Below are positions 2,189-63,479 of a stretch of 64,000 nt of DNA, one piece after another (position 1 is the stretch's first letter; each line of letters begins with the position of its first letter). Source of the stretch: Acidobacteriota bacterium (GTDB lineage Bacteria > Acidobacteriota > Thermoanaerobaculia > Gp7-AA8 > JAHWKK01); contig JAHWKK010000003.1 of assembly GCA_019347945.1 (NCBI GenBank), positions 31,059 through 95,058 on the forward strand, read 5' to 3'. The notes under the pieces were generated by a model. The model saw nothing but the letters and a program-made list of their open reading frames with translations. It did no database searches and had not been told where the DNA came from. A program made the translations under genes and the position numbers.

Positions 2189-4114
2189 TCACAGCTTCAG
2201 CATCGACTGCTTCGAGGACCAGAACCGCCCCAGGCGCCCTGACTGCCGGAACGCATCCCACAGCGCCATCGGACCGGACGTCGCACCGATGAGCTGCTTT
2301 GCGCGGCTCGTATTGCTGCCGCGAATGCCATCGACTCCCTCTTTTTCGAAGAGCTCGAAGAGTGACGCCGTGCGGATCACCGCCATGTGTGTGAATGCCT
2401 GCGGAAAGTTGCCGAGAAAAATCTTTGAGTCCGGATCGATTTCTTCCGAGTAGAGCCCGACGTCATTCGACGCAGCGAGCAGCTCGTCAAGCCGGTCCCG
2501 GGCCTCCTTTTCTCTCCCCAGCCAGAGCAACGCATCGACGAGCCAGAAGCTGCAGAGGAGAAATGCGCCTTCCCCCCCTTCGAGCTGGTCATCAGTTCGA
2601 TACCTGTAGACGAACGGTCCATCCGACAGCTCCTCGCGGATTGCATCGACGGTGCGGCCGAACACGCCGGCATCGATCGGGAAGCCTGTGAACGGTATGG
2701 CGAGCAGCGAGCCGTCCAGATCGCCGCTCTCGAACGATTGCATGAGAGTGCCGCGGTTCGGATCGATCCCTCTCGCGAGGACCGTCTCGACGATCTCGTC
2801 CGCGGTCCGTCGCCATCCGCGTTTCTGCTTTCGGGATCCGGTCAATGCCGTCGCGCGGTCGAGGGTCACCCACGTCATCACCTTCGAGTAGACGTGATTC
2901 ATCGGCTCTCCGCGCATCTCCCACAGACCGCTGTCTGGCTCCGACCAGTTCTCAGCGGTCCGGTCCGCGAGCTCCGCGAGAAAGTTTCTGGTGCGCCGTC
3001 GGGGGCGGCTCCCGAGGGCGCGCTGGAGGTGAGCCCAGTCGAGAATCTCACCCGGCACGTCGTGCTGCGTCTGCTGATATGCACCATTTCCTATGCGCAC
3101 GGGACGACTCCCCGCATAGCCCTCGAGATGATCGAGTGACCGTTCCGGGAGCTCGGCTTCCGAGTCGATGCCGTACATGATCTGGAGGCGTGGGTACGAG
3201 GCGTGGCAGGCCACCATGAGGTACTCGCCGAAGCGCCGGGCTTCGCCGCTGTATCCGAGGACCGACAGCGCATACAGAGTGAGCGCTGAATCGCGCATCC
3301 AGCAGAACCGATAGTCCCAGTTTCGCCCAAACCCGATTGCCTCGGGAACAGAGGTGAGAGGCGAAGCCACCAGCGCTCCCGTCGGGGCGTACGTCATCAG
3401 CTTCAACGCCATCGCACTCCGCACGACGGCGGCATCGTGCGGTCCACCGTAGCGGGAGTACTCCATCCACTCCTCCCAGAATGCCCGTGTGACGTCGAGA
3501 AGCTGCTGCACGGGAATGTCGGGAACGCGAGCCATCGCGGGATAGACGAGCAGCTCCCGGCGATCTCCCGCGTGCAGCTCGATCTGAGCCGCCGCGCCTT
3601 CCGTCTCGTAGACGTGAAAGTCGATGCCTGTCCGGAGCTGCGTCCCGTCGGAAGCCGTCACGCCCCCTTTCATCGTCGTCAGAAGGGAGCGATGGCGGCC
3701 GTAATCGCTGGTCGGATCGTACAGCAGCTTCATGGGGACAGTTCCCTCGACGCCCTCGAGAATGCGCACGAGCGCGAATGGCGCCTCGAGCGTGACGTAG
3801 TCATGCATGCTCGATCCTGGCTTGCGACCGACCGGCATGAAGTCCGTCAGCCGAACAGACCCCGATGAGGTGCGGAAGAGAGTCTCGAGAATGTTGGTCC
3901 CTTCGAGGTAGCGGCGTTCCGATTCGAATTCTCCCGCGGGGTTGATCGAAAATGATCCCCCTCGTGTCGCGTCGAGGATGCGGCAGAACGCCGGCGCGGC
4001 ATCGAACCGGCCGAATGTGCACCAGTCGATGCTTCCTGTCCGGGAGACGAGCGCTGCGCCGTGACAGTCGCCGATCAGCGCGTAGTCACGGATCGGTGCG
4101 TAAGGTTCGTTCAC
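2189..4114 (-). CDS. Glycoside hydrolase family 15 protein (glucoamylase/trehalase-like)
   Basis: 641 aa ORF with the GH15 signature region GFGRNWDYRFCWMRDSALTLYAL and an N-terminal glucoamylase-like beta-sandwich. Confidence 0.85.
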   Translation of the reverse strand: MNEPYAPIRDYALIGDCHGAALVSRTGSIDWCTFGRFDAAPAFCRILDATRGGSFSINPAGEFESERRYLEGTNILETLFRTSSGSVRLTDFMPVGRKPGSSMHDYVTLEAPFALVRILEGVEGTVPMKLLYDPTSDYGRHRSLLTTMKGGVTASDGTQLRTGIDFHVYETEGAAAQIELHAGDRRELLVYPAMARVPDIPVQQLLDVTRAFWEEWMEYSRYGGPHDAAVVRSAMALKLMTYAPTGALVASPLTSVPEAIGFGRNWDYRFCWMRDSALTLYALSVLGYSGEARRFGEYLMVACHASYPRLQIMYGIDSEAELPERSLDHLEGYAGSRPVRIGNGAYQQTQHDVPGEILDWAHLQRALGSRPRRRTRNFLAELADRTAENWSEPDSGLWEMRGEPMNHVYSKVMTWVTLDRATALTGSRKQKRGWRRTADEIVETVLARGIDPNRGTLMQSFESGDLDGSLLAIPFTGFPIDAGVFGRTVDAIREELSDGPFVYRYRTDDQLEGGEGAFLLCSFWLVDALLWLGREKEARDRLDELLAASNDVGLYSEEIDPDSKIFLGNFPQAFTHMAVIRTASLFELFEKEGVDGIRGSNTSRAKQLIGATSGPMALWDAFRQSGRLGRFWSSKQSMLKL

Positions 4115-4117
4115 CGT

Positions 4118-5674
4118 TCACTCGAGCTCAGCGGTCTTTCCGGTCATCGCCCGTCCCGCCGCACGCAGTTCGCGGACGACGAGCGGGACCGTTGCGAACG
4201 TCGCACCCGCCGCAAGGAGGCACCAGAAGCAGAAGGCTTTGTGTTTGGTCCACTGATCGAGCGTGAGTTTCCCCGCATTGGCGGCATCGAAGGCGACCTT
4301 CGCACCGAGCGCGAGCGGAACCCACGGCATCGTCCGGTACCGATCGGGACCACCCATGGCGGCAAGCGACATCGTCGCTGCGTAGCTGCCGAGGCCGAGA
4401 ACCGCATCGGGCATCGAGAATCTCTCGTACGCTTCCGCCGACGCATCGACCTTGTCTGCATCCATCATCGGAAGCGGCGGCTCGGGCAGATGCCGGATGA
4501 TCCCCATCTGATAGAGCGCGATGAACCCCATCGAGGCGGAAGCGAGAGCTGACAGCCCCACGATGCCGCGCCTGTCCTTCAGATACTTCGACTCTCCCCT
4601 GCGGAGGTCGCGGCTCAGCCTGGACGCCTTCTTCTTCGCCCGCTTCTTCTCTTTCCGCTGCTGACCATTCCCTGCAGCCTTCAGACTCACGGCCACGGCG
4701 CCTAACGCGATCGCAGCAGCACGACTCAGCCAACCGCGGTGCAGATTGGCCTTCGTATACCAGTCGTGTTTCTGCGCTCTGTCGTCGAACCGGCCATGAG
4801 CTCCATGATCACCGGGGACTGGTGCCCACAGATTGTGCGGACGGTCCGGATCTTCCGGCTCGTCGGTCATCTGATCGTAGCCGTTGTCGGCGAGATAGGT
4901 GTCTCCGTAGCCGGGAAAGAATGCGTTTCCGACGATCGCCTTCGTGGTATTCCACGCGACGTTCACTTCCCTGCGATCGTTGTCTACGGCCCACATCACC
5001 GCGCGGGCGGCGATCTCGGGCTGGTAAATCTCCCCCACCGGCGCAGCCCGGCGCGGCAGCTTGCTTTTCACCCAGTCGAACTGCGGAGTATTGACTGCGG
5101 GAAGGTTCACCATCGTCAGACGCACAGCGCTCCTGTCGTGGATGAGCTCCGCGTACAACGAATCGTTGAAGCCCTGGATCGCGTGTTTGGCTCCGCAATA
5201 AGCCGCCTGCAACGGAATGCCCCGGTAAGCCAGAGCAGAGCCGATCTGGACGATCACGCCGTGATCGCGCGGAAGCATCCGACTGAGGGCGGCCATCGTT
5301 CCATGAACGACACCGAGGTAGGTCACCTCCGTGACCCGTTTGACTTCGTCAGGCCGCAGTTCTTTAACCGGCGAGAAGACAGAGACCATCGCGTTGTTGA
5401 CCCAGACGTCGATTGGACCGAAGGTCTCTTCGACCGTTTTCGCTGCGGCCTCGACCGCATCAGCATCCGCGACGTCCAGAGGGAGAATGATCGCCTCCCC
5501 GCCGAGCTCTTCGACATCGCGCTTCGCGCCTTCGAGGCCATCCCCTCCGCGCGCGATCAATCCGATCCGAGCACCACGGACTGCGAGCTCCCGCACGATC
5601 GCGCGACCCACACCCGCCGACGCACCGGTGACGACGACCACCTCGCGTTTCTCATCCTGCGCACGCTTCTTCAT
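4118..5674 (-). CDS. SDR family oxidoreductase fused to a C-terminal membrane domain with a CxxC motif (VKOR/DUF4126-like)
   Basis: Rossmann motif VVVTGASAGVGRAI and catalytic YCGAKHA in the N-terminal half. A Lys-rich linker follows, then ~200 aa of hydrophobic helices containing CFWC. Probable true start is the ATG at 5674 (MKKRAQDEK), which has a GGGAGAAAGGA RBS. The track start at 5809 is probably too long. Confidence 0.7.
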   Translation of the reverse strand: MKKRAQDEKREVVVVTGASAGVGRAIVRELAVRGARIGLIARGGDGLEGAKRDVEELGGEAIILPLDVADADAVEAAAKTVEETFGPIDVWVNNAMVSVFSPVKELRPDEVKRVTEVTYLGVVHGTMAALSRMLPRDHGVIVQIGSALAYRGIPLQAAYCGAKHAIQGFNDSLYAELIHDRSAVRLTMVNLPAVNTPQFDWVKSKLPRRAAPVGEIYQPEIAARAVMWAVDNDRREVNVAWNTTKAIVGNAFFPGYGDTYLADNGYDQMTDEPEDPDRPHNLWAPVPGDHGAHGRFDDRAQKHDWYTKANLHRGWLSRAAAIALGAVAVSLKAAGNGQQRKEKKRAKKKASRLSRDLRRGESKYLKDRRGIVGLSALASASMGFIALYQMGIIRHLPEPPLPMMDADKVDASAEAYERFSMPDAVLGLGSYAATMSLAAMGGPDRYRTMPWVPLALGAKVAFDAANAGKLTLDQWTKHKAFCFWCLLAAGATFATVPLVVRELRAAGRAMTGKTAELE

Positions 5675-5830
5675 CTCTGAATGTCCTTTCTCCCGTTCAG
5701 CCGCAGCAAGAAAAACTCCAGCCGGCGATTCGCTCGCTGAACTGAGATTGTCGAAATTGACGTTCACCAGGGCTCGATGTGTGGCGGCCAGTTTCGAGGC
5801 AGCAGCCATCGAATGACCAGAAGCTCTCAG

Positions 5831-7031: not shown

Positions 7032-7149
7032 GGCCTGTTCTTACCGAATGCCCAGCGCACTGTCCAGTGGTTGATGGAAATCAGTGCAATCAAATCCGCA
7101 CCCGGATCGTAACGCGGCTGAGGCACGTAGCCGTGCCCAGGAGGAAGGA

Positions 7150-7878
7150 ATGACCGAACCGACGTATGTGAGGCAGACGAAAATCAACTGGAGCTCGGCA
7201 CTGATCGCCGGATTGATCGCTACTGTCGTGATCACGATTACGATGGCGATCTTCGGGCAGAACATCATGAAGATGCTCGGCTCGACGATGCTCGGCGAGG
7301 ACGCGAGCGTGGGCGCACAGTATCTCGTCGGAGGAATGTTCCATCTGATGGTCGGCCTCATCTGGGGCGTGCTCTACGCGTGGCTGTTCGGTCCCGTGCG
7401 CGTGTGGAATCCGCTCCTGAAGGGAATCGTGTACGGTCTGGCCATCACCGCCATCGCCCTCGCGACCATGCCGATCATGATGGCAATGATGGGCGGAGGG
7501 GGAGCCGGAAACCCATGCGCCGCCAACCCGTGCGCCGCCGGAAACCCGTGCGCCGCCGCCAATCCGTGCGCTGAAGCGCCCGGCAATCCCTGCCAGCCTT
7601 CGGATGTCGCGGGGAACCCGTGCAATCCATGCGCTGCCAATGCGAGCTCTTCGCCCGACCACGCCGGCAATCCGTGCAACCCCTGCGCGGCGAAGGCCGC
7701 ATCCAATCCATGCGCGGCGAAGGCCGGGTCCAATCCCTGTTCTGCGTCAGCCGGAAATCCGTGCAATCCATGCGGCGGATCCGGAGGAGACACCTATTCG
7801 GCGATGATCAGCCTGATCAATCATCTCGTCTTTGCCCTGGCGCTGGCGTTCATCTACAGGCCGCGGGTGGCAGAATGA
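7150..7878 (+). CDS. DUF1440-like polytopic membrane protein with an inserted Cys-rich NPC tandem-repeat loop
   Basis: ATG at 7150 sits directly after an AGGAGGAAGGA RBS; the track start at 7084 is probably too early. Three N-terminal TM helices and one C-terminal helix (INHLVFALALAFIY), homologous in outline to the paralog at 12948..13481. Between them is a ~100 aa loop of repeats: GNPCAANPCAAGNPCAAANPCAEAPGNPCQPSDVAGNPCNPCAANASSSPDHAGNPCNPCAAKAASNPCAAKAGSNPCSASAGNPCNPCGG. The stop TGA overlaps the ATG of the next gene (ATGA). Confidence 0.6.
   Translation: MTEPTYVRQTKINWSSALIAGLIATVVITITMAIFGQNIMKMLGSTMLGEDASVGAQYLVGGMFHLMVGLIWGVLYAWLFGPVRVWNPLLKGIVYGLAITAIALATMPIMMAMMGGGGAGNPCAANPCAAGNPCAAANPCAEAPGNPCQPSDVAGNPCNPCAANASSSPDHAGNPCNPCAAKAASNPCAAKAGSNPCSASAGNPCNPCGGSGGDTYSAMISLINHLVFALALAFIYRPRVAE
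7501..7790 (+). repeat. In-frame 15-18 bp nucleotide tandem repeat encoding the NPC/Cys loop
   Basis: Repeated units aa(c/t)cc(a/g)tgcgc(c/g)gcc occur at least 12 times. Unit length is a multiple of 3. The reverse strand yields the mirror HGLHGFPA repeats seen in spurious ORF 7374..7793. Confidence 0.6.
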
Positions 7879-8810
7879 CATTCCCTCCCCCAATTCGTCT
7901 CGCGGGAGTATTCGCCGGCGCAGTCCTTCTCCTGGGAGGTACCGGCTACTGGCTGGAGCGGAGCTCCGCATCGCTGGATGCCGAAGGGCTGGCGTGGGGA
8001 AGCGGGACGGACCTGACGCGTCCCGCGAGCTCCGGTGAGATGGTGATGATTCCTGGCGGCACGTACCGGATCGGGGACGACTCCGACCATGCGGCTGCGG
8101 ATGCGCCATTGCGCGAGGTCGCCATTCAACCCTTCTATATCGACACGCACGAGGTCACCAACCGCCAGTTTCGCGAGTTCGTCGAGGCGACCGGCTACCG
8201 AACGACCGCGGAACGTCAGGGGGGAGGTTGGGGCTACCGATCGGGAGCATCGGACTGGGAGTATCTCCGCGGTGCCAGCTGGCTTGAGCCGCTCGGTCCT
8301 GGAAGCTCGATCGACGGCGCACTCGATCATCCCGTCGTTCTCGTTTCATGGGAAGACGCACGCGCGTATTCCGCGTGGGCCGGCAAGCGGCTTCCGACCG
8401 AAGCGGAGTGGGAGGTCGCCGCCCGCGCCGGTGTATCGGCAGGCAACACCACTTCCCGTCATCGCGACCCCTCGAAGGATGGATCTGCGAATGTCTGGCA
8501 GGGAACCTGGCCGCGCAGGAACGAGCTGGTGGACGGATTTTTCTACACTGCACCCGCCGGTACGTTCGAGCCGAACGACCTCGGCCTTTACGACATGATC
8601 GGGAACGTCTGGGAGTGGACCGAAGATCCGTACGATCGGGTCAACGCGCCGGAGATGCGTGTCGCCCGCGGTGCCTCGTGGTTCTGCTCGGCAAGCTACT
8701 GCGGTGCCTATCGTCCCGGGTTTCGCGGCAAGAGTCCGATCTCGCGCGGGTTCAACAATGTCGGGTTCCGCTGCGTGAAAGATGCGGTGTCACTGAGCAA
8801 TGAGAGTTGA
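7875..8810 (+). CDS. Formylglycine-generating enzyme family protein (SUMF1/EgtB/PvdO family), secreted or periplasmic
   Basis: ATG at 7875 overlaps the upstream stop. N-terminal signal anchor AGVFAGAVLLLGG. FGE-sulfatase domain hallmarks: RGASWLEP...HPVVLVSWEDARAYSAWAGKRLPTEAEWE...GNVWEWTED...RGASWFCSASYCGAYRPGFRGK. It lacks the DinB-type N-terminal domain found in EgtB. Confidence 0.85.
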   Translation: MTFPPPIRLAGVFAGAVLLLGGTGYWLERSSASLDAEGLAWGSGTDLTRPASSGEMVMIPGGTYRIGDDSDHAAADAPLREVAIQPFYIDTHEVTNRQFREFVEATGYRTTAERQGGGWGYRSGASDWEYLRGASWLEPLGPGSSIDGALDHPVVLVSWEDARAYSAWAGKRLPTEAEWEVAARAGVSAGNTTSRHRDPSKDGSANVWQGTWPRRNELVDGFFYTAPAGTFEPNDLGLYDMIGNVWEWTEDPYDRVNAPEMRVARGASWFCSASYCGAYRPGFRGKSPISRGFNNVGFRCVKDAVSLSNES

Positions 8811-9876
8811 TTTCAGTCCTATGCGAGATTTGATGCGTCTCCGCGTGATTGCTCCGCTCGTTCTGACACTTACGGTTTCTGCCTGTGCAGCGCCAAACGT
8901 CGACGATCCGAGGAGGGAGCCGAAAACGAGGGACGGATTGCCGCACATCACCGAGGTTGAAAACGATCCCGTTCACACGCTGCTCGCTCCCGACGCGATC
9001 CCCGCCATCGACGAGCCGGAGTTCGTTCGGGCGGCCGATGCGACGTTCATGGATGACGACGAGCCGGTCATCGGTGTCGTCTTGGACGGGGTGGCGAGGG
9101 CGTACTCCACATGGCACCTCGACCGCCACGAGATCGTCAACGATACGATCGCCTCGAAGCCGCTCGCGGTCACCTGGTGACCGCTCGCGCATACGGGCGT
9201 CGTGTACGCCCGACCGGAAGTCGACGACGGTCCGACCACCCTGGGCGTGTCGGGGATGCTGTGGCGTGATTCTCTCGTGATGTACGATCGTGCGACGCGC
9301 TCGCTCTGGAGCCAGGTCAATGGCCGGGCTGTCGCCGGGCCGATGAAAGGACGGCGGCTCGAAGAGTTTCCGTCCGAGCAGATGACGTGGGCCGAGTGGA
9401 AGCGCCGCCATCCGGACACACTGGTCCTCGTCAAGCCCCGCCTTCGCGGTTCGACGTACGATCGATACTTCGATGATCCCCGCATGATCGGGGTCCGCGG
9501 GTCGCGGAACCCCGATCCTCGCCTGCCGGGAAAGGAGCTCGTTCTCGGCCTCGAGCACGATGGCCGCTTCGCCGCCGTGCCGATCTCTGCGCTCCGACAG
9601 CGTCCGATCCTTCTGACCACAGCGCTCGACCGTCCAATCGTCGTCACCCGCACCGCCGCCTTCGACCGGCGTCATGGCGATCGCTCGCTCACATTCGAGC
9701 CTTTTGACGGAGCGCGGATGCGCGATCGGGAAACCGGTTCGATCTGGTCACTGGACAGCGGAGAAGCGATCGACGGACCGCTCCAGGGGCAGCACCTCGC
9801 GCGCATCTCGGCGAAGACTGTCTACTGGGCGATCTGGGCGAAATTTCATCCCGAGACCGCGGTGATCGAACCATGA
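8800..9876 (+). pseudogene. DUF3179-like lipoprotein reading frame interrupted by a single in-frame TGA (9178..9180): either a nonsense pseudogene or a selenocysteine/readthrough site
   Basis: ORFs 8800..9180 and 9202..9876 are in the same frame and together form one ~350 aa secreted protein. Lipobox LTLTVSAC near the N-terminus; candidate starts at 8800, 8821 and 8833. The sequence reads ...KPLAVTW-TGA-PLAHTGVVYARPE... with no frameshift. Start overlaps the FGE gene stop (8808..8810). Confidence 0.5.
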
Positions 9877-9936
9877 AAGTGCTGGAGGGTATACGCTTCG
9901 GGCTGTCGAGTACGCACCGCTGCGCCATCCCTCAGC

Positions 9937-10521
9937 TCACGCAGTCCTGGCGAGCGCCATGACGAGCCCCTTCTCTTTCCAGACATCGATTCGAAGTCCA
10001 TCGATGACGAACTGCTGCGAGGAGCCGATTCTCGCAAGTCGCTCGTCGGCCCGCACCTGAATCAGAGTGCAGATCCCTCCGGACGGCTCGACGAGCTTGA
10101 TTTCTATCGCAGACAACCCGCCGACCGACGAGTATCGCGCGCCGACTACGCGCAGCGACATCTCTGCGGCGCGCTGAGGCATTACCGGATTGAAGTCGAG
10201 ACGCGCCATCTTTGCGCGCAGCTCGTCGTAATCAGAAGCTCGTACTTCGACAGCGAGACGGCGGTTGTGATCCCGGGCCGCGATCATCGCAATCTCCTCC
10301 GCCGCCCCGTGATCGCGAGGGACCAGCAGAAGTGCGGTGGCCGCGATCAGGATTGCAATGACCGCAGCGATCGAAAGCCAGCGAACCGAAAACCGGCTGG
10401 ACCTCCGCTCGCGCTCGCTCCCCTTTCGGAGAATGCGGATCTCGTCGATCATGGACGAGGAGAGACGCTTCGATTCGTAGTGAGTGCGAATCTGCTGTTC
10501 CAGGTTCTTTTCCGGTTTCAT
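9937..10521 (-). CDS. Anti-sigma factor, single-pass membrane protein
   Basis: ATG at 10521 (MKPEKNLEQQ...) overlaps the ECF sigma stop as ATGA. Cytoplasmic N-terminus, TM helix WLSIAAVIAILIAATALLLV, periplasmic C-terminal domain. Partner of the upstream ECF sigma. Confidence 0.5.
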   Translation of the reverse strand: MKPEKNLEQQIRTHYESKRLSSSMIDEIRILRKGSERERRSSRFSVRWLSIAAVIAILIAATALLLVPRDHGAAEEIAMIAARDHNRRLAVEVRASDYDELRAKMARLDFNPVMPQRAAEMSLRVVGARYSSVGGLSAIEIKLVEPSGGICTLIQVRADERLARIGSSQQFVIDGLRIDVWKEKGLVMALARTA

Positions 10522-11037
10522 ATGCTTCCCTCTGCGCCGGTCCGGCAATTCAGAAGGGTCCTCAGTTTCGATTTTGTTCGATGCAGCAGACTCAGCACCG
10601 TCCCCCGCGGCCGGCGCGTCAGATCGGCGATCTCCTGCGCGGTATAGCCCTCGACCACGGCCAGAAAAAGCGTCTCCCGCTCCTCCGCCCTGAGCTCGCC
10701 GAGCGCCTGATCGAGTGCGCCGGAAAGGAGATAGTCCTGCTCCTTCAGCGAGACAGCCGGCAGATCGGCGTCTTCTTCGATTGGAACGAAAAGAATGCGC
10801 CGATTGCGCCGGTACCTGTCGATGAACCGGTTCCGGATCGTCGTCAGGAGATACGCCTTATCCCAGGAGCCGCCCGAGCGGACGACAGCCACGCAGGCAT
10901 CATGGACCAGATCTTCCGCCTCTTCCACCGCGTGGGTGAGCGCCATTGCATAGCGGAATGCAGCGTGCAGCAGATCTTCGAAATCTGCGTCGTCAGACCA
11001 CTCCGCCGAGACATCTGTCGGCACGGTTTCATTCACC
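10518..11037 (-). CDS. RNA polymerase sigma-70 factor, ECF subfamily
   Basis: Sigma-70 region 2 (DLVHDACVAVVRSGGSWDKAYLLTTIRNRFIDRYRR) and region 4 (LFLAVVEGYTAQEIADLTRRPRGTVLSLLHRTKSKLR). The track ORF (to 11222) extends into GC-rich nonsense. Most plausible start is the GTG at ~11037 (VNETVPTDVS); exact start is uncertain. Confidence 0.7.
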
Positions 11038-11288
11038 GGTTCTTGCTCTGCATCGGAAACGCCCGGCCGCGAGCTTTGATTGCAGCGGAAGAGCCCCGCG
11101 CATCGACCCCTCGCCCCGCTCGCGGGTAGAGGGGCCGTACAACTCCGATGCGGGCTACCACACGCAGAGGCTGCAAGCCCCCCGACTCCGTCTCCCGGCG
11201 CGCGTTGATCGCGCAAGCTCATCCGCGAATGCCGCGCGCCACTTCTTGTCTCGCCGACTTCGCGGGGAGAGGGGAGCGGCGGTGGTGC

Positions 11289-12947: not shown

Positions 12948-13481
12948 ATGAGAACCCGATCACGACGCATCCGTGAGCGCAGCCTGGCCACCGACCTGCT
13001 GGTCGGTACGGCTGCAGGAGTGGCCGCTACATGGGTGATGGACTGGGTAACGACCATCATGTACGAGCGGGAGCCGCAGCAGGCAAAGGATCGCGAGAAC
13101 GCAGCCCGCGGCGACCAGATGGCGTACGAGACAGCGGCCGAGAAAGCCGCTGAGCTGCTCGGTCACGAGCTCTCCGAGGAGCAACGAAAGACGCTCGGCG
13201 CCGGCATCCACTGGACGCTCGGCGTTTCTGCCGGTACGGTTTACGGCCTCGCTCGGAACCAGGTTCCTGCCGCCGGGCTCGGATCAGGTCTCGCCTACGG
13301 TGCGCTCTTCTGGCTGGCGATGGATGAGGCGGCGCTCACCCTTCTCGGCCTCACTCCGCCGCCGCCCGAGTTTCCATGGCAGACGCACATGCGCGGACTC
13401 GTTGGCCATCTCGTCTTCGGCGTGGTCGTCGAGGCGGCGTTCGCCATCGCGGACACCGCGCAGGACCGGCTCTCCGACTGA
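12948..13481 (+). CDS. DUF1440 family membrane protein
   Basis: ATG at 12948 (MRTRSRRIRE) downstream of GGAAGGAG; the track gives a TTG start at 12894. Four predicted TM helices. YGALFWLAMDE and HLVFGVVVEAAF blocks parallel the NPC-repeat protein at 7150 but without its Cys loop. Confidence 0.6.
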   Translation: MRTRSRRIRERSLATDLLVGTAAGVAATWVMDWVTTIMYEREPQQAKDRENAARGDQMAYETAAEKAAELLGHELSEEQRKTLGAGIHWTLGVSAGTVYGLARNQVPAAGLGSGLAYGALFWLAMDEAALTLLGLTPPPPEFPWQTHMRGLVGHLVFGVVVEAAFAIADTAQDRLSD

Positions 13482-14023: not shown

Positions 14024-16627
<2,604 letters not shown>

Positions 16628-25897: not shown

Positions 25898-28800
25898 CTA
25901 TGCATCACCCTCCCGCAGTGCGTAATCGATGGCCTCACTCACTCCCATACATTGTCCGCACTGGTAAAGACGTCTGCTGTCGGCCTGATCGAGTGACTTC
26001 CGCGCTCTTTCGATCCCCGCAGAAAGCTCTGCCTGCTCGCCCTCCGGGAGAGGCGATCCGATGATGTCACGCAGCCGGGATGCGGCGCCGGCGAGCGTGA
26101 GAGCCCGCTCGTAACGGCCCTGGTCGGCGTCGAGCAGGGCCATCGCCTCGAGCACCCGCGCGATTCCTCTCCTGTGAGTGAGTCGCGAGAATTCCGCCAG
26201 TGCCTCACGATAGGCGGTGTCCGCCTTGTCGGGTTCTCCTCTCCGCCGGAACAGCCCGCCGAGGTCGACGAGGGTGCTGGCGGTCCCCCATTGATCATTC
26301 AACTCGCGAAACGACGACAAGGCTGCGGTGTACAGACTGAAGGCATCGTCCAGCCGATCGGTCTCGCGGGCGACGTCTCCCTGATGATTCATGACCCACG
26401 CCGTACTGGTGTCGTCTCCCAGACGCCGGAACAGCGCTTCCGTCTGCTGGTACATCTCTCGAGCAGCGTCGTGGTCGTTCTGAAGCCTTCGAACCATCGC
26501 GAGATTCGTGAGAGATCTCGCGAGGCTGGCATCGTCGCCGATCGTTTTCCAGATCTCGAGGCTCTCCTCGAGATACTCCGAGGCTCGTTCGAGTTGACCG
26601 AGATCCTTGTAAGTCAGACCGAGGCAGTTGCAGCCGATGGCGATTCCGCCGGGGTCCCCCAGTCGCCGATAAAGTGCGAGGCTCTCTTCCGCGCGTTCCG
26701 CCGCGATTTTGTAGTCGCCCTGGGTGCCGGAGAGAACCGAGACGGCGAACAGGGCTCGCGCTCTCAGGATGTCGTCGCCGCCGGAGCTGGGAAGAGCCAG
26801 GAGAGCATTCAGACGTTTCCTTCCCTCCGAGAGATGTTCGCTCCTCTCCCAGAATGGGAAGATGCCGACCGCCAGCCGGAGGCCCCACTCGGTCATGCCG
26901 GCCGCGGTGACCCATTCGAGAGCAGCACGAAGATTGTCGTTCTCGCGTGCAAACCTGGAAAGCCAGCGAACACTGTCTCCCTGGGAAAGCGCCTGTCCCC
27001 CTTCTTCAGTCAGGACCAGAAGATACGCGGCGTGAGCCTTTCGCGTCACATACTCGTCACCACTCGCCTCCAGCCGCTCTGCTGCGTAGTCCCGCACAAT
27101 GCCCAGCATCGTGAATCTCGGTTCTTCCTGGTCGTCACCAACCTGGACCACGAGGCTCTTGTCGACGAGCGAACCGATCCCGTCGACCACGTCGACACCA
27201 AGCCGCTCGAAGGGATCTGCGACGGCCTGAGCGTGTTCCAGCGTGAAAGATCCCGCAAACACCGCGAGTCTCCGAAAGATCGTCTGCTCATCGGCACTGA
27301 GCAACTCGTGACTCCAGTCGAGCGTCCCTCGCAGAGTCTGCTGTCGTCCTGGAAGATCGCGAGCACCTCCCGTCAGCAGCTTGAGTCGCTTATCGAGCCG
27401 CTTGAGCATCGCATGAGGCGTCATCAGCCGAGTCCGTGCCGCAGCGAGCTCGATCGCCAGAGGCAGGCCATCGAGCTGCCGGCACACCTCGATGACCGCT
27501 GCCAGATTCTCGTCGTTGAGATCGAATGAAGAAGCGGTCGCACGAGCCCGCTGAACGAAGAGCATTACGGCGGGATTCGCCAGAGCTTCGTTCACGCTCA
27601 GTGCAGCTCCAGGCTCCGGGACCGGAAGAACAGACACGGAAAGAGCTCTTTCCGCATAGAGGTGCAGGATCTCACGACTCGTCACCAGGATCGACACGGT
27701 CGGGCACGCGGCAAGGATCTCGGTAAGGATCGAAGCCGCTTCGATGACCTGCTCGAAATTATCGATCACCAGCAGCGTTCTGGCCGAGCTCGCCTGCAGT
27801 TCAGTGATCACTCCCGAAATCGGTTCCCGTCCCCGATCAAAGCCTCCGAGCGCCTGCGCGATCGCTGCTCCCACGAAATCTCTGTTCGATATGGCGGCAA
27901 GCGGTACGTAGAAGACGCGGCCGCCATACCACGGAAGAAGCTGTTCCATTGCTGCGATCGCGAGGCGCGTCTTCCCACTTCCTCCGGGCCCGGTAAGGCT
28001 TACCAGGCGGACTCCCTGCTCGACGATCAGCTCATGGATTGCCCGGAGCTCCCTCTCGCGACCCAGCAGGGGAAAGTCAGCCTCGGGAAGCTTCGGGGTC
28101 GGACGCGAGACGTGCAGCGCGGCAGAATCCGCACCGGCGAGAGCCGCGAGCGTTTTGCGAACGTCATCGGTCGAGCGATGGCGATCCCGAGGATCCTTCT
28201 GAAGCATCGTCTCGATCAGAGTCGAGATCATCGGTGGCAGGTCAGGACGGGTCTTCACGACCGGGGGTGGTCTCTCACTCAAGGTCGTTGCGATTATCTC
28301 GACGCCGCTGGCGCCTTTGAAGGGGCGGGATCCGGTCGCCATTTCGTACAGGATGCAGCCAAACGAAAACATATCGGATCGGAAGTCGGCCGCTCCTCCC
28401 GCGATGACCTCTGGTGCCATGTAGCCGAGCGTTCCGACCGCGGAACCCTCGAGCGTCAGAGGCTCCTTCGGCGACGCATCATGGCGAATGGAAGCCACTC
28501 CGAAATCGAGAATCTTGGTGACGCCGTGCCGGGTGACGAAAATGTTGTCGGGCTTGAGATCGCGGTGGAGGATCTCTCGCTCATGAGTCGCCGACAACGC
28601 GTCCGCGATCTGGAAGGCAATCCGGAGAAACTGCCCCGCCGCAACCGGCTGCCGCACGAGCTCCCGAAGACTCTGGCCTTCGAGCAGCTCCATGACGATG
28701 AACGGCTGACCAGCCTCCTCTCCGATATCATGAATGGTCACGATATTGGGATGGTTGAGGGCGGATGCTGCTCGAGCTTCTTGTTCGAATCGCGCCCGTG

Positions 28801-29035
28801 TGGCTGCCGTGAGAGAGCGCGATCCCCGGATGACCTTGATGGCAACCTGGCGGCCGAGTCGGCTGTCGTCTGCGACGTACACCTCGCCCATCGCTCCCGC
28901 TCCGAGAGGCCGGAGAACCCGATATCGGCCCAGGACCGATCCGGGACCGAGGGGACAATCGGGGATTACCGCCGGTTCCGCGACCGGCCGTTTCGAGGTC
29001 GGAAACTCGTCCGTCGATATACCTTCATTCGACAT
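25898..29035 (-). CDS. Serine/threonine protein kinase fused to an AAA/STAND ATPase and TPR repeats (PknK-like regulator)
   Basis: Hanks kinase (GAGAMGEVY, VAIK, HRDLKPDNIF, DFG). Walker A GPGGSGKTRLA with an NB-ARC-like ATPase. Long C-terminal TPR array. 1045 aa. Confidence 0.85.
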   Translation of the reverse strand: MSNEGISTDEFPTSKRPVAEPAVIPDCPLGPGSVLGRYRVLRPLGAGAMGEVYVADDSRLGRQVAIKVIRGSRSLTAATRARFEQEARAASALNHPNIVTIHDIGEEAGQPFIVMELLEGQSLRELVRQPVAAGQFLRIAFQIADALSATHEREILHRDLKPDNIFVTRHGVTKILDFGVASIRHDASPKEPLTLEGSAVGTLGYMAPEVIAGGAADFRSDMFSFGCILYEMATGSRPFKGASGVEIIATTLSERPPPVVKTRPDLPPMISTLIETMLQKDPRDRHRSTDDVRKTLAALAGADSAALHVSRPTPKLPEADFPLLGRERELRAIHELIVEQGVRLVSLTGPGGSGKTRLAIAAMEQLLPWYGGRVFYVPLAAISNRDFVGAAIAQALGGFDRGREPISGVITELQASSARTLLVIDNFEQVIEAASILTEILAACPTVSILVTSREILHLYAERALSVSVLPVPEPGAALSVNEALANPAVMLFVQRARATASSFDLNDENLAAVIEVCRQLDGLPLAIELAAARTRLMTPHAMLKRLDKRLKLLTGGARDLPGRQQTLRGTLDWSHELLSADEQTIFRRLAVFAGSFTLEHAQAVADPFERLGVDVVDGIGSLVDKSLVVQVGDDQEEPRFTMLGIVRDYAAERLEASGDEYVTRKAHAAYLLVLTEEGGQALSQGDSVRWLSRFARENDNLRAALEWVTAAGMTEWGLRLAVGIFPFWERSEHLSEGRKRLNALLALPSSGGDDILRARALFAVSVLSGTQGDYKIAAERAEESLALYRRLGDPGGIAIGCNCLGLTYKDLGQLERASEYLEESLEIWKTIGDDASLARSLTNLAMVRRLQNDHDAAREMYQQTEALFRRLGDDTSTAWVMNHQGDVARETDRLDDAFSLYTAALSSFRELNDQWGTASTLVDLGGLFRRRGEPDKADTAYREALAEFSRLTHRRGIARVLEAMALLDADQGRYERALTLAGAASRLRDIIGSPLPEGEQAELSAGIERARKSLDQADSRRLYQCGQCMGVSEAIDYALREGDA

Positions 29036-29113: not shown

Positions 29114-29935
29114 TTAGATGGAGAACCTCCGGAGGGCGACCAGCCCGATGATCGCGATCAGGGCGACGAGGGTCGCCATGCCGATCGGTCCGAGGGTCGG
29201 AATCTGCTCCACCGGCGGACGCGCCACCGCCGGCACGCACCCGGTGATGATCGAGTCCGTCAGTGTCACGTCGTCGTTCGCCAGGGCTCGACCTTCCCAG
29301 GTCGTGTCGGTCATCGTGGCCGAGGTCCCGGCGAGGACGTTTCCTGCGAAGGCCGCATCGGTCACCGTAAAGGCCTCGGCGGTCCACCAGTAAACGTTGC
29401 ACGCCTGCGCGGTGCCGCCCATGACAACATTGAAGCCAGGGCCGGTGCCGGTGAATGCGCCCAGCCCGCCGGTTCCGACCCTGAAGACCCAGACGTCGTC
29501 GGCGTCTCCGTCGAGTGTGATCGTGACGCCTGCGCCGATCGTGGTCCCTGCAGTGGAGCAGTAGACACCGGGCGCGAGCGTGGTCGTGGTGGTCGGAATG
29601 GTCCCGGTGCACGGGTTGGCCGTCGGGACCGCGTTGTAGGCGTTGTCGAAGTCATTGACGACCGTCCCGGAGACCGGCGCGTCAATGCTCCCCGTGATCG
29701 TACACGGCCCGGTGTTGGTGATCGAGTTGCCGGTGGTGCCCACGTTTCCATCGATTGTTGAAGTCGTACAGGTCACCGTACCGGAAGTCGGGATGTCGTT
29801 CGTACCGAGGACCGTGTAGTTCCCCGCCGTACCCAGTGGCGGCGCCACCTGGGCATCTGCCGTGGTGGCGAGTGCAAACGAAACCAGGGTGGCGAATGCG
29901 AAGCTGGCAATGAGTCTCGGGTGCGTGAGGTTCAT
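29114..29935 (-). CDS. Secreted DUF3494 (ice-binding-like) protein with an IPTL-CTERM sorting signal
   Basis: Signal peptide. DUF3494 pattern AGNYTVLGTNDIPTSGTVTCT...IDGNVGTTG. Thr/Gly-rich beta-solenoid. C-terminus EQIPTLGPIGMATLVALIAIIGLVALRRF matches the IPTL-CTERM motif (motif, TM helix, basic tail). Confidence 0.7.
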   Translation of the reverse strand: MNLTHPRLIASFAFATLVSFALATTADAQVAPPLGTAGNYTVLGTNDIPTSGTVTCTTSTIDGNVGTTGNSITNTGPCTITGSIDAPVSGTVVNDFDNAYNAVPTANPCTGTIPTTTTTLAPGVYCSTAGTTIGAGVTITLDGDADDVWVFRVGTGGLGAFTGTGPGFNVVMGGTAQACNVYWWTAEAFTVTDAAFAGNVLAGTSATMTDTTWEGRALANDDVTLTDSIITGCVPAVARPPVEQIPTLGPIGMATLVALIAIIGLVALRRFSI

Positions 29936-61169: not shown

Positions 61170-63479
61170 GTGCTCAAGGCTGGTTCACGGCTCGGCCCGT
61201 ACGAGGTGCTCGCCCCTCTGGGCGCGGGCGGGATGGGAGAGGTATGGCGGGCGCGCGATCAGCGCCTGCATCGCGACGTGGCCATCAAAGTCCTTCCCGA
61301 GGCCATGGTCGAGAACGAGATGGCCCGGGAGCGTTTCGAGCGCGAGGCCCAGGCGGTGGCCGCGCTGTCCCATCCGAACATCCTGGCCATCCACGACTTC
61401 GGCCATGACAGCGGCATTGCGTACGCGGTCATGGAGCTTCTGGAAGGGGCCACCCTGCGCGAACGCATGCAGCAGGCCGAGATCACATCGGCCCGCGCTC
61501 TGGAGTGGGCCCATCAGATTGCCCAGGGTCTGGCCGCCGCGCACGAGCGAGGCATCATTCACCGCGATCTCAAGCCCGACAACATCTTCGTCACTCGCGA
61601 CGCGGTGGTGAAGATTCTCGACTTCGGTCTTGCTCGCATCGACGAACCGGCCGTGCGCGATACCGCGGAGGGCACCACCGTCATCGCGCGCACTTCGCCC
61701 GGCACGATCATGGGCACCTTGGGCTATCTCGCACCCGAGCAGGCGCGCGGCGAGACCTCCGATGCGCGCTCCGACATCTTCTCGTTCGGTGTGGTCTTCT
61801 ACGAGATGCTTGCCGGAAAGCCGGCCTTCGTGCGCAGCTCGAAGATGGACACAATCATGGCCATTCTGCGCGAGGAGCCGAAGCCGCTCGCCGATACGGG
61901 ACGCAGCGTCCCGGGCGAGGTCGAGGATATCGTGCGCCACTGTCTGGAGAAGGCTCCGGAGGACCGGTTCCGCTCGGCGCGCGACCTCGCCTTCGCGCTG
62001 CGGTTGGCCATGCGCTCGAGCTCCGCGAGCGGGTCCGATCTCGTCAGCCGCCACACTCCGCGACCCGACGAAACCTCGCGTCGGGGCGAGGTCTCGATCG
62101 CCGTTCTCCCGTTCCGCAACATCAGCTCGGCCGCCGACGGCGAATACCTCAGCGACGGGATGACAGAGGAGATCATTAACTCCATCTCCAACATCCCGAA
62201 TCTGCACGTTGCTGCGCGAAGCTCCTCGTTCGCATTCAAAGGGAGCTCGGACGACGTGCGGAAAATCGGGCGCGAGCTCGGCGTGGGCATGGTCCTGGAA
62301 GGGAGTCTCCGCCAGCTCGGCTCGCGACTGCGCGTCTCCGCTCAATTGATCAACGTGGAGAGCGGCTTCCAGGTCTGGTCCGAGCGGTGGGACCGCGAGC
62401 TCGCCGATGTCTTCGCTGTGCAGGACGAGATCGCCCAGGCCATCGCCAGCGCGTTCAAGCTCCGCATCGCGCCCGAGGATGCAGGGGCGGGGACGGGAAA
62501 GACGCAGAACGTGGACGCGTACGACCGCTATTTGAAGGGACGGTACCTTCTGGTGCGACGTCGAACGCGCGAAGCCATCGAGGAGCTGCAGGCGGCGGCG
62601 GAAACGGATCCCGATTTCGGCGACGTCCATACCGCGCTCTCGGACGCCTGGGCCATTCACGGTTTTTACAGCGGCGTCTCGACGTGGGAGGCGTGGGCGC
62701 GCGCACAAGCGGCCATCGACGAAGCCGAACGCGTCGCGCCCGACTCAGCGAGCGTCGCCCTTTCCCGGGCCATCCTCGAGCACTACTACGGATGGAACAC
62801 TGCACGAGAACAAGCGTTCTGCCGGCAGGCCATCGAGCGCAATCCGAAGTCGGCCGACGGGTGGAACTGGCTGGGTCTTTGTCTCGGGTTGACCGGACGA
62901 ACGAAAGAGGCGCTCGAGTGCACGGCCCGCGGCATCGAGCTCGAGCCCTACGACGCGAACGTGCGCGCCTCCGCTGCCTGGGCCTCCGCGACGATCGGCG
63001 ACTTCGAGACGGCGGCACGGGTGCTGTCGAGGACACTCGAGATCGCGCCGGACAGCGGCTACGCCCTCTGGAGTTACGCCACAGCGCTGCGCTTCCTCGG
63101 CCGCTATGAGGAGTCCATTGCCGTCTTCGACAAGCTCGTCGAGGCGAGCGGCCGCGAGGTCCCGTTCTATCTGGCTCGCCTCGGTGCAGCGCTGGCAGAC
63201 GCGGGCGAGCGATCGAAAGCCGAGGAGATCCTCCACGACCTGCAGTCCCGTCGCGACCGCAAGGTGTTCGTCGCCTCCCGCGATCTGGCCACACTGCTCA
63301 CCGCGCTGGGCTACCACGAGCTCGCCCTCGACGCGTTGGAGCTCGCGCGGCAGGAGCGCAATGCGCTCATGTGGGCGTGGATCTACCAGGCCGAGTACCG
63401 TCCGCTTCAGAGCCATCCGCGATGGCACACTCTCGCGCAGCAAGTCGGCAGGACCGCGCCCATGACGATCGCGATCTGA
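61170..63479 (+). CDS. Serine/threonine protein kinase with a TolB-N-like domain and C-terminal TPR repeats
   Basis: GTG start. Hanks motifs (GAGGMGEVW, VAIK, HRDLKPDNIF, DFGLA, GTLGYLAPE). Then VSIAVLPFRNISSAADGEYLSDGMTEEIINSIS, which I recognise as a TolB-N-like module, and a TPR array. 769 aa. Confidence 0.85.
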   Translation: MLKAGSRLGPYEVLAPLGAGGMGEVWRARDQRLHRDVAIKVLPEAMVENEMARERFEREAQAVAALSHPNILAIHDFGHDSGIAYAVMELLEGATLRERMQQAEITSARALEWAHQIAQGLAAAHERGIIHRDLKPDNIFVTRDAVVKILDFGLARIDEPAVRDTAEGTTVIARTSPGTIMGTLGYLAPEQARGETSDARSDIFSFGVVFYEMLAGKPAFVRSSKMDTIMAILREEPKPLADTGRSVPGEVEDIVRHCLEKAPEDRFRSARDLAFALRLAMRSSSASGSDLVSRHTPRPDETSRRGEVSIAVLPFRNISSAADGEYLSDGMTEEIINSISNIPNLHVAARSSSFAFKGSSDDVRKIGRELGVGMVLEGSLRQLGSRLRVSAQLINVESGFQVWSERWDRELADVFAVQDEIAQAIASAFKLRIAPEDAGAGTGKTQNVDAYDRYLKGRYLLVRRRTREAIEELQAAAETDPDFGDVHTALSDAWAIHGFYSGVSTWEAWARAQAAIDEAERVAPDSASVALSRAILEHYYGWNTAREQAFCRQAIERNPKSADGWNWLGLCLGLTGRTKEALECTARGIELEPYDANVRASAAWASATIGDFETAARVLSRTLEIAPDSGYALWSYATALRFLGRYEESIAVFDKLVEASGREVPFYLARLGAALADAGERSKAEEILHDLQSRRDRKVFVASRDLATLLTALGYHELALDALELARQERNALMWAWIYQAEYRPLQSHPRWHTLAQQVGRTAPMTIAI

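Follow-up and report, generated by a model that had tools for sequence, protein, structure and literature searches.

A conserved in-frame UGA as a probable selenocysteine codon in a DUF3179 lipoprotein gene of an Acidobacteriota bacterium

A DUF3179-family gene of an Acidobacteriota bacterium carries a TGA codon within its reading frame. Comparison of the sequence with its relatives makes it very probable that this codon (9178-9180) specifies selenocysteine (Sec) in an intact selenoprotein gene, and that the hairpin at 9194-9212 is its SECIS element. Positions are those of the window, the whole stretch of 64,000 nucleotides that was analysed. The codon is conserved among relatives and corresponds to a cysteine of homologues, purifying selection acts on the gene on both sides of the codon, and the hairpin covaries. 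The finding corrects an annotation; it is no new kind of system. Modestly new are a UxxA motif with Sec as the sole redox residue of the mature protein, its setting in a lipoprotein with a predicted Rieske-like fold, and the location of the gene in an operon with an FGE-like enzyme. The features are collected in table 1.

Table 1. Coordinates of the predicted selenoprotein gene, its elements and its operon partners.
Feature	Position	Strand	Basis
Membrane protein with Cys-rich 'NPC' repeat region; first operon gene	7084..7878	+	ORF, translation
Membrane-anchored FGE-sulfatase-domain protein; upstream operon partner	7875..8810	+	PF03781, E 1.8e-69
Predicted selenoprotein gene, complete; DUF3179-family lipoprotein precursor, Sec at residue 127	8800..9876	+	frame, Pfam, dN/dS
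Predicted signal peptide ending in lipobox V-S-A-C, Cys29 (TGT at 8884-8886)	8800..8886	+	motif read from sequence
Putative UGA selenocysteine codon, U127; first residue of U-P-L-A motif	9178..9180	+	aligned to Cys in homologues
Spacer from UGA to SECIS stem, 13 nt	9181..9193	+	sequence
Putative bacterial SECIS hairpin: 5' arm 9194-9200, apical loop 9201-9205 (CGUGU), 3' arm 9206-9212	9194..9212	+	energy, covariation

Reading frame and family assignment

Translation of 8800-9876 on the forward strand yields a single frame of 358 codons plus a TGA stop. It reads 126 residues, the internal TGA, 231 residues and the terminal stop, and contains no frameshift. The context of the internal codon is SKPLAVTW-TGA-PLAHTGVVYARPE (AVTW-TGA-PLAHTGVVYA). 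Mechanical ORF listing cuts the gene at this point into 8800-9180 and 9202-9876. A preceding reading of the DNA, made from the sequence alone and here called the sequence-only reading, had described these two ORFs as contiguous in one frame with TGA between them and no frameshift, and had named the protein as DUF3179. The translation bears out the first statement and a Pfam search the second. The joined product matches DUF3179 (PF11376) with an E value of 1.9e-80 and 270.9 bits (cut-off 27), over profile positions 2-292 of 292. Because this match runs end to end across the TGA, the codon lies inside one domain and not between two genes. A search of NCBIfam with the joined protein was negative.

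TGA has its usual meaning elsewhere in the operon. It ends all three genes as a normal stop (7876-7878, 8808-8810 and 9874-9876), and genome-wide reassignment of the codon is therefore excluded. The window was also scanned for other in-frame TGA codons with coding-like GC3 on both sides. Judged on GC3 and local context, none of these, including one at 13286 on the reverse strand, was comparably convincing.

Conservation of the codon and its cysteine counterpart

The best database matches to the protein, at 65-88% identity, are nearly all C-terminal fragments of 196-248 aa that begin a few codons past the TGA. Such fragments are the output expected of gene callers at a conserved TGA. In MBI5248745.1 (P0055), for instance, the recorded protein is a 247-aa fragment that begins two codons past the TGA (L010, 3241; Desulfomonile tiedjei MAG JACRDE010000135.1), and P0003, P0008 and other NCBI-derived entries share this truncation. 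Remoter entries, at 40-48% identity, are full length and carry Cys. In these full-length homologues, the first Cys of a W-C-P-L-C/A motif aligns with the TGA. This column is an invariant Cys between an invariant Trp and an invariant Pro in an alignment of 15 sequences, and is at least 90% Cys in an alignment of 68. Which residue occupies the position in DUF3179 homologues had been raised as a question by the sequence-only reading; it is Cys. The closest pair of Cys and Sec forms consists of P0022 (ATWCPLANTGVVYVR) and L011 (ATW-TGA-PLANTGVVYVR).

Nucleotide sequences of relatives carry the TGA itself. It stands at the exact codon in all 11 fetched loci, which come from Thermoanaerobaculia, Syntrophales, Desulfomonile tiedjei and other Acidobacteria MAGs. 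The orthologues nearest to the gene lie in the Thermoanaerobaculia MAGs JBGTDX01 and JBGSYJ01. These fetched relatives were pooled with 80 loci added by a metagenome scan. The pooled set holds 87 loci with TGA (40 U-P-L-A and 47 U-P-L-C) and seven, in more distant relatives, with TGC or TGT. Since its members were gathered as the closest relatives of a query that itself contains Sec, the ratio of 87 to 7 is biased and is no family-wide figure. Sec forms are by far the more common among such query-like sequences. The 87 TGA loci derive from independent assemblies, extend down to about 40% identity and include Acidobacteriota and Desulfobacterota. Ala at the fourth motif position, as in the 40 UxxA loci, also occurs in some Cys forms, among them P0022, P0026 and P0058.

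Two contigs carry paralogues. On L072, two Sec-containing DUF3179 genes are present (TGA at 1427 and 4351), and on L070 a Cys form and a Sec form lie side by side (TGC at 2059, TGA at 3280). Gene duplication and switching between the Sec and Cys forms thus both occur in this family inside one genome.

Both halves of the DUF3179 gene are under purifying selection. Pairwise dN/dS lies between 0.14 and 0.3 on either side of the TGA, for dS values that range from about 0.3 (0.34) to saturation.

The hairpin downstream of the UGA

The element following the codon, CGGGCGU-cgugu-ACGCCCG, has a stem of 7 bp and a loop of 5 nt. Folded alone, it has an energy of -11.3 kcal/mol, and its apical loop lies 20 nt from the UGA. 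The bSECISearch model of bacterial SECIS elements, as quoted in PMC13188914, describes an apical loop of 3-9 nt on an upper stem of 4-16 bp; a G at the first or second loop position, the next base being mostly G or U; a UGA-to-loop distance of 16-37 nt; and a minimum free energy of -7.5 kcal/mol or lower. The hairpin at 9194-9212 agrees with all four elements of this description, the G being at loop position 2 and followed by U. No SECIS family of Rfam was found, either in a permissive scan of 8700-9900 or at the gathering threshold in the whole window, where no family of Rfam matched at all.

In a single sequence the structure does not stand out. The fold of 71 nt at 9170-9240 is no better than that of shuffled sequences (z = -0.23). 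The sequence-only reading had pointed to a 7 bp hairpin here and had allowed that it might be due to chance. The hairpin is real, but the distance from the TGA to its stem is 13 nt and not 15. The suspicion of chance is in keeping with the single-sequence score, yet the relatives show a helix far from chance.

The covariation alignment comprised 81 Sec loci, 78 of them distinct, and was ungapped over 51 nt. Across the 78 distinct sequences, 98.5% of cells in the helix are standard pairs. Compensatory changes occur in five of the seven pairs, and both sides have changed in 45 cells. In 500 column shuffles, the observed percentage of pairing, number of both-side changes, pair types and covariation score were never equalled, and the number of pairs with compensatory changes was equalled once. 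Displacing the partners by 1-3 columns reduces pairing to 24-50%. An independent prediction by RNAalifold contains six of the seven pairs. The changes can be followed at the level of codons. Thr ACG and Arg CGN become ACU and AGA, both silently, with 10 U-A pairs in the alignment as the outcome. A change of Val GUC to Ile AUC is matched in 18 of 18 cases by a silent change of Tyr UAC to UAU. Silent replacement of Gly GGC by GGU or GGA tracks the replacement of Ala GCC by Thr ACC or Ser UCC.

The helix goes with the Sec form. All seven pairs are present in 79 of the 87 Sec-form genes and six in the other eight. Cys-form genes encoding similar peptides keep three or four of the seven pairs in six genes out of seven. 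The remaining gene, in L035 (about 3220-3265), has TGC and six pairs; its hairpin may be the remnant of a SECIS in a gene that has only recently gone from Sec to Cys. In 76 Sec-form genes, no stretch of the gene has a lower synonymous-codon entropy than the six codons of the stem-loop (0.53; mean 0.78; Mann-Whitney p = 0.005). About a quarter of relatives have the loop GGUCU in place of CGUGU. The G-U of the loop is invariant, and a conserved Val codon begins with it; because of this codon, the dinucleotide is no independent evidence for a SECIS.

Alternative explanations

The genes for Sec insertion are not to be found near the locus. No selA, selB, selD or tRNA-Sec was detected within the 64-kb window: Pfam shows no SelA, SelB or SelD domain in its 30 largest ORFs, ARAGORN no tRNA and Rfam no tRNA-Sec. 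The sequence-only reading had likewise seen no sel genes there. Acidobacteria have been reported to have selenoproteins. The absence from the window is a point in favour of the view that the gene is a nonsense pseudogene, in which a recent mutation of TGG or TGC produced the TGA and the hairpin arose by chance in GC-rich DNA. A lone in-frame stop without a frameshift does resemble a fresh nonsense mutation, and this view also gains from the insignificant fold of the single sequence. Conservation of the TGA in 87 independent loci, in two phyla and to about 40% protein identity, is hard to reconcile with it, as is the covariation of the hairpin. Moreover, sequence 3' of a true nonsense mutation would lose constraint, so that the low dN/dS downstream of the stop, found at dS values from 0.3 to above 1, speaks against a pseudogene. 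The chance that the gene is one is very slight. Pseudogene and Sec site were the two alternatives put forward by the sequence-only reading: the former is refuted by the 87 loci and by purifying selection on both halves, and the latter is upheld by the Cys column, the conserved TGA, selection and the covarying hairpin. Slighter still, close to negligible, is the chance of a sequencing or assembly error, or of two separate genes at 8800-9180 and 9202-9876. Gene callers do cut the locus in two, in this sequence as in many public records. An error would have to recur as the same TGA in 87 independent assemblies. As for two genes, the GTG called as a start at 9202 falls within the hairpin loop, and the Pfam domain is continuous over the junction. 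The 'starts' of the fragments also vary among records (MYARP, VYARP, MLWRD, MAHTG), which marks them as an artefact of ORF finding.

The UGA might also be decoded, though not as Sec. It could be read as Cys by a selC* tRNA(Cys) or by an acidobacterial allo-tRNA suppressor, or be passed by low-level near-cognate read-through. TRNAs of this kind are on record: selC* tRNA(Cys) species, possible opal suppressors, are reported from anaerobic deltaproteobacteria, and unusual suppressor-like tRNAs from Acidobacteria (PMC5389517). Against such decoding stands the hairpin, which is conserved, covaries and has the geometry of a SECIS bound by SelB. Were Cys all that is needed here, mutation of a single base, giving TGC or TGT, would supply it; this is seen in relatives, in which the hairpin is then mostly lost. 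The retention of TGA and SECIS together in 87 loci argues that Sec itself is selected. Decoding as anything else is quite improbable, if somewhat less so than a pseudogene. The reading preferred here is that of a Sec codon in an intact gene.

Features of the predicted protein

The N-terminus, MRDLMRLRVIAPLVLTLTVSAC, resembles a lipoprotein signal peptide with a lipobox. Similar N-terminal lipoboxes (ending in VAC, IAC, FAC, AAC or LAC) are found in eight of ten distinct orthologues. A lipid anchor, with the mature protein outside the cytoplasm, is accordingly the predicted arrangement. Apart from the putatively lipid-modified Cys29, Sec127 is the only Sec or Cys residue of the mature protein. 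Our best guess is that this lone selenol would serve as an extracytoplasmic redox nucleophile or as a soft-metal ligand.

The fold was considered through a structure model made on the Cys homologue P0022. In this model, of which the matching half was not discerned, the fold appears to be of the Rieske type and not of the thioredoxin type. Sequence searches gave no counterpart: a search of the PDB with the family profile found no relative, the Rieske family of Pfam matched none of 67 family members even at E = 10, and hhalign against an approximate Rieske ferredoxin sequence returned a probability of 0.1%. With no Pfam or hhalign match, the link to Rieske proteins is that of the fold comparison only. 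DUF3179 is, on the model, Rieske-like in fold and not a member of the Rieske family.

Operon and genomic neighbourhood

The putative selenoprotein gene is the third of an apparent operon in which stops and starts overlap. The first two genes share an ATGA start/stop at 7875-7878, and the stop of the FGE-like gene overlaps the DUF3179 start by 11 nt (8800-8810), a case of translational coupling. The product of the first gene contains about 14 NPC units (GNPCNPCAA...), with tandem arrays at 7504-7571 and 7677-7736, and matches DUF6789 weakly. It may bind metal. The FGE-like protein retains a CxxxxC pair (FCSASYC), which we take to be the copper-binding catalytic pair of FGE.

This arrangement recurs. 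An FGE-like gene lies beside Sec-DUF3179 in five other loci (L004, L008, L017, L018 and L021), twice on the opposite strand downstream, and orthologues of the NPC-repeat gene adjoin it in L004, L008 and L021. From this recurrence we infer a functional link between the FGE-like protein and Sec-DUF3179. None of the window's 30 largest ORFs is a sulfatase gene. Sulfatases carry the motif CxPxR. DUF3179 itself was considered as a substrate of the FGE-like enzyme and rejected, its motif being U-P-L-A and not CxPxR.

Family-wide, the neighbourhood is variable. A census of the directly adjacent genes in 80 loci, based on crude ORF picking that at times took the wrong strand, gave a mixed set of histidine kinases, pyridine nucleotide-disulfide oxidoreductases, DUF547, DedA/VTT and ECF sigma factors, and no single partner common to the family.

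Several other genes of the window may be recorded. A fusion of a short-chain dehydrogenase with vitamin K epoxide reductase (SDR-VKOR) is encoded on the reverse strand at 4118-5809, some 3 kb away from the selenoprotein gene. In L002 (4102-5613) and L003 (2-544), the orthologue of this fusion stands immediately upstream of the selenoprotein gene. This proximity hints at a link to extracytoplasmic disulfide/quinone redox chemistry. On the other side, reverse-strand genes for an ECF sigma factor (10518-11222) and for what is probably an anti-sigma factor (9937-10548) are convergent with the selenoprotein gene at its 3' end, and orthologues of the pair adjoin Sec-DUF3179 in L020 and L022. Signalling genes are unusually numerous in the window. 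Three Ser/Thr kinases are fused to PD40 or TPR repeats (14024-16627, 25898-29035 and 61170-63479), and many two-component genes lie at 17992-60897, among them at least eight histidine kinases or response regulators. All of these signalling genes are unrelated to the Sec finding, as is an ice-binding-like protein with an IPTL-CTERM sorting signal at 29114-29935.

A bolder reading of operon and protein together is doubtful. On this reading, the UxxA subclass would be a distinct lipid-anchored extracytoplasmic selenoprotein derived from the Rieske fold, with a lone selenol at the site of the first Fe-S ligand, and would form an undescribed periplasmic redox or copper/metalloid system with the FGE-like (copper-oxidase-type) and NPC-repeat proteins.

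Proposed mechanism

We infer SelB-dependent decoding in this Acidobacteriota bacterium, export of the product and the chemistry of the protein from the features above. Synthesis and function would proceed as follows. (i) With the ribosome at the UGA, the apical loop of the hairpin would be bound by SelB-GTP carrying Sec-tRNA(Sec). (ii) Sec would be inserted at the UGA in place of termination by release factor 2, yielding a precursor of 358 residues. (iii) Signal peptide and lipobox are predicted to direct export and lipid anchoring outside the cytoplasm. (iv) Sec127 would be positioned on a loop of the Rieske-like beta-sandwich. (v) Being a lone selenol, it would most likely function there as a nucleophilic redox centre or else bind a soft metal or metalloid as a ligand.

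Significance

The main value of the result lies in annotation. The correct product of the locus is very probably a selenoprotein of 358 residues, and many of its relatives in public records are split or truncated. The 81 aligned Sec loci also provide a clean SECIS alignment with strong covariation, which no current Rfam family covers. The lone Sec in UxxA, the predicted Rieske-like fold, the lipoprotein signal and the association with an FGE-like gene are starting points for work on DUF3179 function. For a selenoprotein specialist, there is little surprise.

Comparison with known systems

The hairpin can be compared with the consensus bacterial SECIS, whose archetype is that of Escherichia coli fdhF. 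Both lie within the coding sequence, just 3' of the UGA, and both have a stable upper stem and a small apical loop that holds G and then U. SelB needs a bulged U and a GGUC loop, both present in the fdhF element. The element described here is, in contrast, a perfect 7-bp stem without a bulged U, and no Rfam model recognizes it.

Rieske [2Fe-2S] domains are the likely structural relatives, the modelled DUF3179 fold sharing their beta-sandwich. The Rieske ligands CxH...CxxH are absent from DUF3179, which has one conserved Cys or Sec in the region. Rieske proteins show the pattern CPH...FD..TG, and DUF3179 shows W-C-P-L-x-x-T-G ... V-M-Y-D-R-x-T-G. The order of strands and this local resemblance of motifs suggest that Sec127 stands in the place of the first cluster-ligand Cys of Rieske proteins.

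Thioredoxin-fold selenoproteins with UxxC or CxxU (DsbA-like, thiol:disulfide interchange and peroxiredoxin-like proteins) offer a functional parallel. There, too, Sec takes the place of the first Cys in a CxxC-like motif, both groups are predicted to be extracytoplasmic, and some DUF3179 loci have genes of thiol/disulfide redox nearby (the VKOR fusion, pyridine nucleotide-disulfide oxidoreductase). The fold of DUF3179, however, appears not to be thioredoxin-like, and U-P-L-A has no resolving Cys. Since the second motif Cys is absent, dithiol or selenylsulfide exchange within the motif is impossible.

The closest known system is the DUF3179 selenoprotein family itself (PF11376). It is listed among prokaryotic selenoprotein families, with the motif UxxC/T, in the reviews PMC9312934 and PMC13188914, both of which credit it to Zhang & Gladyshev 2007 (PMC1976440). 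The accessible part of PMC1976440 does not use the name DUF3179, and a matching family name is not discernible in it. As far as the accessible parts of these three papers extend, DUF3179 selenoproteins appear in them as computational predictions only. One homologue bears the NCBI name 'DUF3179 domain-containing (seleno)protein'. The present gene shares with the family the Pfam domain, Sec as the first residue after Trp in W-[U/C]-P-L-x, Cys-containing homologues and a stem-loop just past the UGA. It differs from the published UxxC/T in being UxxA, with no resolving Cys nearby, and whereas the two reviews credit the first identification of the family to a deltaproteobacterial worm symbiont, the gene here belongs, as its nearest MAGs also indicate, to Thermoanaerobaculia (Acidobacteriota). 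The locus is a member of a known selenoprotein family, and its small variation is the Ala at the fourth position of the motif.
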